Source of the DNA: an uncultured Clostridia bacterium
GTDB taxonomy: Bacteria; Bacillota; Clostridia; Christensenellales; UBA1242
Length of the DNA stretch: 64,000 nucleotides
Assembly: GCA_934778205.1 (NCBI GenBank)
Contig: CAKVOD010000001.1
Coordinates: 126,769-190,768 of the forward strand
Direction of reading: 5' to 3'
Made by a program: the position numbers and the translations under genes. Positions 47,645 to 47,835 of the stretch are shown piece by piece. The notes beneath the pieces are model-generated. The model was given only the letters and a program-made list of their open reading frames with translations, was not told the DNA's origin and did no database searches. Every line of letters starts with the position of its first letter. Within the stretch, counting starts at the first letter, position 1.

Positions 47645-47835
47645 TAAAAAAGGTACACAGCAAATTTACTATGTACCAAAATCATATATTGCCACCCAAC
47701 CAAACCTGCAGCGGCGGGGCTTTCCCCGCAGGTACATAGTAAATTAACTATGTACCAAAATCATATGGTGCCACCCAACCAAACTTGTAGCAGAGGGGCT
47801 TTCTCCGCATGTACATAGTAAATTAACTATGTACC
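47645..47835 (-). repeat. Family-A array (A1 subtype: two ~80-nt units plus a leading hairpin) downstream of and co-oriented with jag
   Basis: The minus strand reads GGTACATAGTTAATTTACTATGTAC | ATGCGGAGAAAGCCCCTCTGCTACAAGTTTGGTTGGGTGGCACCATATGATTTTGGTACATAG.. | TGCGGGGAAAGCCCCGCCGCTGCAGGTTTGGTTGGGTGGCAATATATGATTTTGGTACATAGTAAATTTGCTGTGTACC TTTTT. Confidence 0.85.

Follow-up and report, generated by a model that had tools for sequence, protein, structure and literature searches.

The 64,000-nucleotide stretch of DNA considered here (the window, by which the whole stretch is meant; positions 126,769 to 190,768 of contig CAKVOD010000001.1, from an uncultured Clostridia bacterium) is identical to scaffold_131 of ENA ERZ28615229 and carries, beside genes such as spo0A, jag, dnaN, dnaA and mnmE, eleven arrays of a short repeat that we term family A. 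Searches with nhmmer and a covariance model assigned around 20 full or nearly full units and some ten partial ones to these arrays. The family A unit is a non-coding repeat of 92-94 nucleotides (nt), most commonly 93 nt, and has a variant, A1, of 79 nt; units follow one another as direct head-to-tail repeats with a period of 79 nt (A1) or 92-99 nt (A). Each A unit opens with H1, a G+C-rich hairpin with a 5-6-bp stem and the loop ANAG, followed by TG-CTGCAGGTAC-TGTCC-CTAC, ~17 variable nt, GGACGGC, ~13 variable nt, CTTTCTA, ~12 variable nt and TCTCG, the segments between the conserved blocks being near-random. Read on the minus strand at 47651-47839, the A1 unit consists of H1, the linker GCTGCAGGTTTGG with a short spacer, and a long AT-rich hairpin (GGTACATAG...CTATGTACC). 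The sequence GGGGANAGCCCC occurs six times in the window against an expectation of 0.00. Curation of the H1 hairpins of the window and 12 related loci, where genes were called from open reading frames only, gave a set of 91, all of which are extragenic save for overlaps with stop codons; the linker after H1 is CTGCAG in 27 of these, CTACAG in 15 and CTGTGG in 14. Outside H1 the mean identity between units is only 59%.

Six of the arrays begin no more than 8 nt from the stop codon of a gene that shares their orientation. On the plus strand, one A1 and two A units (7641-7915) begin 8 nt past the stop codon of a gene encoding 2519 amino acids, the last unit ending in a strong hairpin, AAGGACGGC...GCCGTCCTT, and then TCTAT; three units (35675-35957) begin directly past the TGA stop of spo0A; further units (56339-56550) lie downstream of dnaA, whose TGA stop is inside an H1 arm (GTGAC-AAAA-GTCAC); and three units (58810-59056) begin 2 nt past the mnmE stop codon. 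On the minus strand, three units (51277-51580) lie downstream of dnaN, the first H1 overlapping the end of the gene, and an A1 array of 2.4 copies (47651-47839; Tandem Repeats Finder period 79, 90% matches; repeat family D2) lies downstream of jag (47895-48605, minus strand; Pfam Jag_N/R3H). The jag array includes a perfect H1, GCGGGG-AAAG-CCCCGC (47714-47729, minus strand), and, as read from the sequence, a degenerate H1-like hairpin, GTGGGT-ATAA-ATCCAC (47872-47887, minus strand), begins 7 nt past the jag stop codon. Three arrays are antisense beside a gene start. Two minus-strand units (54740-54952) precede dnaA, with an H1 (54936-54951) directly abutting the -35 box TTGACT at 54952; one full A unit and a partial A1-like unit on the plus strand (47047-47170; H1 at 47048-63, a small hairpin, H3, at 47107-20) are divergent from the CCA-adding enzyme gene (45579-46985, minus strand), H1 being 14 nt upstream of a -35 box in a promoter read from sequence; and a minus-strand A1 unit (8344-8423) is antisense to a downstream plus-strand gene that starts near 8449, its H1 end lying 8 nt from the Shine-Dalgarno sequence of that gene. 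The two remaining arrays flank the spacer between dnaN and dnaA, that on the left side of this DnaA-box-containing region (53130-53377, minus strand) consisting of degenerate units together with two H1 hairpins, and the other being on the right (53784-54140, plus strand).

An earlier note on this DNA had proposed that the H1 stem changes sequence between copies while keeping its pairing. The hairpins on which this was based are all present (GCGGGG/CCCCGC at 47048-63; GTGGC/GCCAC at 35675-88, 53784-97 and 53903-16; GCGGC/GCCGC at 58812-25; GTGAC/GTCAC at 56339-52; and GTGCG/CGCAC at 56433-46), and the proposal is borne out. In an alignment of 76 units fitted with the covariance model, 95.5% of the H1 stem cells were paired compared with 83.6% in shuffles, none of the 500 shuffles scoring as high; five of the six H1 pairs displayed changes on both sides and 38 cells were compensatory, while sliding the partner by 1-3 columns reduced pairing to 44-68%. 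It should be emphasized that this alignment leans towards structure because it was fitted to it. A loop-anchored scan, which is independent of the model, detected 45 distinct stems in 96 hairpins, and when off-pattern loops were dropped (n = 91), 55 hairpins were perfect, 23 had one non-Watson-Crick pair and 13 had two. The main stem types are GCGGGG/CCCCGC, GTGGC/GCCAC and GTGCG/CGCAC, and the singletons include GTGAC/GTCAC, GCGGC/GCCGC, GCCGA/TCGGC and GTGCC/GGCAC. The covariance model and the loop-anchored count were used in place of RNAalifold, which reported no structure on a MAFFT alignment of 50 units because the 5-bp and 6-bp stems were out of register. Covariation in H1 is statistically supported. 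The long A1 hairpin behaves similarly, variant stems such as AGCACATAG/CTATGTGCT remaining paired, and the data support the view that in both hairpins pairing, not duplex sequence, is preserved. The relevant form would therefore be a single-stranded hairpin, either of RNA or of DNA. Outside H1 there is no conserved fold, with no column pair reaching a mean pairing probability of 25% and sub-regions folding no better than shuffles (z from -0.6 to +0.4). H3 is a small hairpin that occurs in only some units and in a variable register. A second stem, in which CTGTCC pairs with GGACGG and encloses a variable H2, was seen in many single folds and rejected, as its z was ~0 and the common CTTTCC variant breaks a pair without compensation.

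The earlier note went further, arguing from three hairpins with a G·T pair that the elements are selected as RNA on the strand co-oriented with the upstream gene. They would then be cis-acting RNA structures, for example stabilisers or attenuators in 3' untranslated regions (3' UTRs), and, had this been right, an abundant new class of structured RNA. The three examples exist (GCGGGG-ATAG-CCTCGC at 56461-76, with one G·T pair; GCATAC-TT-GTGTGC at 47107-20; and GGTACATAG/CTGTGTACC on the minus strand at 47652-77, with T·G pairs). The same window, however, contains A·C mismatches on the sense strand at 7642-55 (GCAGC/GCCGC), 7722-37 (GCGAGG/CCCCGC), 58905-18 (GCGAA/CCCGC, two mismatches) and 58997 (a terminal pair), and on the minus strand the decayed H1 GCGGAG-AAAG-CCCCTC (47793-47808) combines A·C and C·T mismatches on its sense strand. 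The totals in the window are nine G·T-type against six A·C-type pairs, and over the 91 curated hairpins, which derive from three to four genomes and whose paralogous copies are non-independent events, the counts are symmetric at 18 each. The model-fitted alignment gives 14 and 12 (p = 0.85), three of the A·C cells being artefacts from truncated alignments. Even within the six window arrays that lie sense in 3' UTRs, a hand tally returned seven G·T and six A·C pairs, and when all arrays were re-oriented to the local direction of transcription, a second hand tally gave G·U in ~12 cases and A·C in 16. G+T makes up 56% of the sense strand, so that ~62% of such pairs are expected to be G·T by composition, which also explains the energy advantage of that strand; sense folds are 3.2 kcal/mol better than antisense, the corresponding value in dinucleotide shuffles being 3.5 (p = 0.70). 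Folding z-scores for 47640-47895 are -5.6 on the minus strand and -5.0 on the plus strand. Selection of H1 as sense-strand RNA is thus not supported statistically and, on this sample, does not withstand the refuting condition set in the note. Of the note's proposal of selection on structure, the preservation of hairpins over duplex sequence stands, but its assignment to sense-strand RNA lacks support.

The orientation of the arrays leads in the same direction. In the window and the related loci, some 12 arrays are sense at stop codons and another 12 or so antisense beside the starts of opposite-strand genes, the latter arrangement being at least as common in the related assemblies; in locus L026, for example, three plus-strand arrays lie between minus-strand genes, with one H1 directly at the Shine-Dalgarno sequence of a lipoprotein gene (L026:3478, verified by eye). 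Because for about half of the arrays the flanking genes run in the opposite direction, the sense strand of the element is not generally the transcribed strand. One of the three wobble hairpins, that at 47107-20, belongs to the divergent array at 47047-47170, and is not co-oriented with an upstream gene, since the only adjacent gene on that side, at 45579-46985, is on the minus strand. A rule linking orientation to replication was also considered and abandoned, there being three plus-strand and four minus-strand arrays to the left of the origin. It could be argued in favour of sense cis-acting RNAs that six window arrays lie no more than 8 nt from a co-oriented stop and upstream of a terminator, and are thus transcribed in the sense direction, that H1 covaries, that the A1 hairpins are rich in G·T pairs and followed by T-runs (see below), and that, of seven recent changes in H1 stems at the strain level, five produced G·T and not A·C pairs. 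Set against this are the pair counts, the composition and the mixed orientation described above, together with the rate of divergence, the absence of the elements near dnaA in relatives (both presented below) and the failure to match any curated Rfam family. We therefore consider selection as sense cis-acting RNA distinctly unlikely.

The behaviour of the arrays between genomes provides a further line of evidence. The window was compared with two strains, L049 (98% nucleotide identity) and L052 (94%), and with a species-level ortholog, L022 (83-87%). Whole-unit differences from L049 or L052 occur at 47.7, 51.4, 53.9, 54.8 and 56.3 kb, with junctions at CTCG|H1. With respect to L049, the window has one extra A1 copy at 47.7 kb, a unit at ~51366-51461 that sits between two identical H1/linker sequences, and two units at 53899-54093, while upstream of dnaA it is L049 that has more units. 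L052 lacks exactly the unit at 56340-56432, and its dnaA stop codon is TAG. In L022 the array after the giant gene (the ortholog of 7641-7915) is reduced to the last, terminator-bearing unit, and the H1 upstream of the next gene has the stem GTGCG/CGCAC where the window has GCGGGG/TCCCGT. Divergence between the window and L049 is 6.0% in the arrays, 5.6% at third codon positions and 3.1% in other intergenic DNA; within units it is 5.6% for H1, 3.1% for the conserved blocks and 4.2% for the variable segments, which is no clear difference. As they vary by whole units between strains, the arrays could serve as strain markers; they can also break or confuse metagenome assemblies.

The distribution of the family is narrow. 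A scan of 185,579 species genomes detected it in just two assemblies, both of uncultured Clostridia (JBNMHN01 and CALDMJ01), and two scans of JGI metagenomes returned none and one contig, respectively. No unit was present in 67 kb around dnaA in four relatives whose DnaA proteins are 92%, 83%, 72% and 65% identical to that of the window, indicating that the family is recent and, near dnaA, dispensable. The nearest named relatives by DnaA are annotated as Christensenellales or Clostridia, and Spo0A is encoded in the genome. A scan of the whole window at the Rfam gathering thresholds matched only the L10 leader, an E-value scan of 46.9-59.4 kb had no match on the repeats, and no description of family A was found in the literature. 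These data point to an interspersed hairpin repeat family in uncultured Christensenellales-like Clostridia that matches no Rfam family or paper found, such families being common in bacteria.

We propose, with a probability of roughly 0.55, that family A together with A1 belongs with REP, BOX and MIRU as a modular, interspersed repeat that is non-coding and restricted to its lineage. Intergenic head-to-tail arrays would gain and lose whole units through recombination or slippage between neighbouring H1/linker sequences, and resident units would change roughly as fast as neutral sequence. H1 and the conserved blocks may be kept since copies that retain them are the ones that get copied, in which case selection would be exerted at propagation, probably on the single-stranded hairpin, and not on the resident copy as sense RNA. 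Selection at propagation would account for the compensatory stems, the equal numbers of G·T and A·C defects and the occurrence of either orientation. Compensatory change among paralogous repeat copies does not prove that each copy is a functional RNA. Selection at the point of copying has likewise been argued for REP, BOX and similar families (in part PMC3049150).

Several observations weigh against this proposal. The rate comparison between strains is based on only 28 substitutions. No gene for a transposase or other mobilizing function was detected in the window among the called genes or the Pfam-scanned frames (the 2519-residue frame was not among the latter), and it was not possible to reconstruct an empty site with a target duplication; the case for mobility consequently relies only on where the family is present or absent in the genomes compared. 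Among 50 sampled units, identity outside H1 does not exceed 89% for any pair, and thus recent copying is not directly seen. The intermediate state between C-G and T-A at position 2 of the stem was T·G in ten instances and C·A in one, which favours the sense strand of the element. These T·G copies are mostly one propagated subfamily, GTGGGG/CCCCGC, and the similar bias in the long A1 hairpins, six G·T against one A·C, is spread over only three hairpins; neither excess is significant once non-independence is allowed for. Finally, the position of the H1 end, within ~8 nt of the stop codon in all six such cases in the window, or at a -35 box or Shine-Dalgarno sequence, is not predicted by a purely selfish model.

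Of all the features, only this anchoring to stop codons and promoters merits further attention. The end that abuts the gene is always the H1 end and never the tail, with gaps of 0-8 nt to stop codons and likewise to Shine-Dalgarno sequences, and of 0-14 nt to -35 boxes, far tighter than random insertion into a 3' UTR of 50-100 nt. In five of the six stop-codon cases in the window, H1 lies within ~8 nt of the original position of the stop in relatives. The last codons of the essential genes dnaN and dnaA have been rewritten by the arrays. DnaN ends ...LPVRIIN* in relatives and ...LPVRIVA* in the window, where GTG GCA TAG forms the 5' arm and loop of H1, the dnaN stop being the TAG of the ATAG loop in the first hairpin. 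DnaA, which ends AMLGN* or AMLKD* in relatives, ends AMLE* in the window, with its TGA inside the unusual stem GTGAC/GTCAC; it looks as if TGG had become TGA and the opposite arm had changed to compensate. As in dnaN, a reading frame in locus L015 ends at 2401, inside the loop of an H1 at 2393-2406. The C-terminus of MnmE is unchanged. The tight placement of H1 supports a further possibility, namely that active targeting, or selection, puts the H1 end precisely at gene edges, where it would replace last codons, supply the stop and abut Shine-Dalgarno sequences or -35 boxes. Family A would then represent an element of gene boundaries not described before, remodelling the C-termini of proteins and perhaps setting the ends of transcripts, a suggestion we make tentatively and regard as unlikely.

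The same geometry bears on an RNA role that is independent of orientation. Here H1 would act as a protective cap, shielding the transcript from 3' exonucleases where it follows the stop codon or from a 5' exonuclease where it immediately precedes the Shine-Dalgarno sequence, while the A/U-rich remainder of the unit would provide a cleavage or spacer region. Such a function would be consistent with the proximity of the H1 end to the gene in both configurations and with the nearly perfect palindrome, which folds either way round; REP and BOX are also thought to stabilise upstream mRNA (PMC3049150). In the antisense arrays, however, the gene-proximal H1 (8408-8423 in the window, and the L052 ortholog of the hairpin at 54936) has a G·T pair in the element that becomes C·A in the transcript. 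Furthermore, an H1 at a -35 box, as at dnaA and the CCA-adding enzyme gene, is upstream of the promoter and hence outside that mRNA, and strain divergence is close to that of third codon positions. A cap function is therefore possible but rather unlikely.

The concentration of the arrays around the origin (eight of eleven lie within 12 kb around dnaN-oriC-dnaA) could instead reflect a role at the level of DNA, with the units providing binding sites for a nucleoid, replication or segregation protein. The linear blocks, which keep their sequence irrespective of orientation, would fit such a function. In contrast to a sequence-specific duplex site, however, the stems change while their pairing is kept. 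Arrays are also present at related-genome loci that lack dnaA, and the origin regions of the four relatives carry no units. A DNA-binding role is accordingly very improbable. Duplex sites of the parS/Noc type were considered for family A and rejected.

Comparison with known systems places our preferred interpretation, an interspersed repeat selected at propagation, in context. REP elements are thought to be copied as single-stranded hairpins. Like REP and BIME sequences, family A comprises a short, G+C-rich imperfect palindrome that is extragenic, present in many copies, clustered at gene ends, transcribed with the upstream gene and variable in its stems by compensatory change. It differs in that the unit is 92-94 nt with one small hairpin and long non-palindromic conserved blocks, in that the units are arranged head to tail and not as the inverted pairs of BIME/REPIN, and in its host, a Clostridia lineage, with no RAYT gene in the window. 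The GTAG tetranucleotide of the REP type is found in family A only on the complementary strand and in a minority of linkers. The BOX elements of Streptococcus pneumoniae (boxA-boxB(n)-boxC) contain a tandem internal module whose copy number varies between strains through slippage or unequal crossover (PMC3049150). Family A is likewise modular, intergenic, Gram-positive and often co-transcribed, with a tandem copy number that differs between strains. It lacks, however, terminal inverted modules resembling boxA and boxC, its arrays starting with H1 and ending with a unit tail or the A1 hairpin; no sequence relation was noted, and the H1 end anchors family A to gene boundaries. Integron attC sites, one of which follows each cassette reading frame and near which an integrase gene lies, were considered and dropped, since successive family A units have no reading frames between them, the arrays flank housekeeping genes (dnaA, dnaN, spo0A, mnmE) and no integrase was found in the window.

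The MIRU repeats (Supply et al. 1997) are reportedly units of 40-100 bp in intergenic head-to-tail arrays of strain-variable copy number that overlap the upstream stop codon. They are said to have the same orientation as both flanking genes and to contain small reading frames that overlap stop and start codons. Family A shares the arrays, the variable copy number and the stop-codon overlap, but about half of its arrays are antisense, coding periodicity is absent and there is a G+C-rich hairpin in each unit. Family A might itself be coding, its units specifying either a repeated peptide of 31 residues or small frames of the MIRU type that are coupled to the genes on either side, as the commonest unit is 93 nt and one sense frame is stop-free in 28 of 50 units. 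Column variability, however, has no three-base periodicity (1.04, 1.13 and 0.98 bits), with units of 92, 93 and 94 nt side by side the frame does not carry over from one to the next, translation of the various H1 stem types yields unrelated residues and the upstream genes stop at or before H1. The likelihood that the units are coding is next to negligible.

That resident copies have effects at the RNA level is nevertheless plausible from their positions. The arrays that begin at stop codons would certainly be transcribed as 3' UTRs, as judged from terminators predicted beyond them at 36081-36112 and 56607-56634. The first of these, of canonical form, follows the spo0A array and so places that array in the 3' UTR; the second is beyond the array downstream of dnaA. 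The A1 hairpin may itself terminate transcription where it closes an array. Directly after it, eight of ten sense copies have a run of four to seven T, and the same arrangement of hairpin and T-run is present in L049 (terminal copy, T6), L022, L026 and L008. In the jag array the terminal copy, GGTACATAGTAAATTTGCTGTGTACC followed by TTTTTT (47646-47677, minus strand), has an 11-pair stem and was reported as terminator-like; the hairpin, at 47652-47677, most likely serves as intrinsic terminator to the rnpA-yidC-jag transcription unit. A1 resembles an intrinsic terminator in its stem of ~10 bp, its T4-7 run and its tolerance of G·U pairs, and differs in being part of a repeated, movable module. 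The internal A1 copies at 47731-56 and 47810-35 have no T-run, and some A1 copies (8345-8370) face away from any gene.

The window also contains features that surround the arrays. It spans a replication origin, with six perfect DnaA boxes between rpmH and the dnaN array (50833-51146) and two more (53047 and 53587) in the 2.3-kb spacer between dnaN and dnaA (52778-53595). In the window dnaN (minus strand) is divergent from dnaA (plus strand), while in the related loci L054 and L056 dnaA is followed by dnaN on one strand. The inverted family A arrays at 53784-54050 (plus strand) and 54758-54952 (minus strand), whose units are up to 89% identical, bracket a 700-nt AT-rich block upstream of dnaA, together forming a large inverted repeat at which inversion or extrusion of a hairpin could be favoured. 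On both sides of the origin spacer (52826-52891 and 54210-54590) there are dense arrays of an AT-rich AGTACTTA-type motif (period ~15-33 nt), a similar AGTACTAA-rich stretch being found upstream of dnaA in the relative L059; they could represent an unwinding region or a protein-binding array. The promoter-like site of dnaA, TTGACT-17-TATACT (54952-54989), ends 6 nt before the annotated ATG, and thus the mRNA may be leaderless or the true start may be further downstream. Inside dnaA there is a weak, sub-threshold match to AsdA antisense RNA (55434-55512; 27.9 bits against a threshold of 52).

Other repeats are present. Family B, of ~300 nt with long inverted arms (GTCATTTCGACCGAA...GGAGAAATCTCCCGGAAGGG) and reminiscent of miniature inverted-repeat transposable elements, occurs at 47185-47515, 7950-8310, 33560-33810 and 59044-59165 and in related assemblies, and is absent or different at 47.2 kb in L049. 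A dispersed element of ~100 nt, C (47525-47624), recurs in L008 (two copies), L025 and L029 at 75-87% identity and has no Rfam match. A 64-nt sequence with 33-nt tandem repeats (TTGGAAAAGTGTATTTTTT...), located at 36129-36225 and 37679-37742 with 92% identity, flanks an AAA_14/DUF4143 gene (36256-37599) as if the gene were a cassette. Several frames of 400-470 residues (11523-12854, 12970-14370 and 15251-16519) have no Pfam match. The 2519-residue frame (74-7633) and two DUF11-domain proteins (8364-9233 and 17962-18726) are possibly located at the cell surface. Just downstream of parB are four perfect parS sites (TGTTTCACGTGAAACA; 63476-63671; 0.39 expected by chance) with spacings of 40, 40 and 100 nt, and downstream of this cluster an 18-nt tandem repeat, AAATATAGTAAATTATAT, extends over 3.7 copies with 93% matches (63878-63953).

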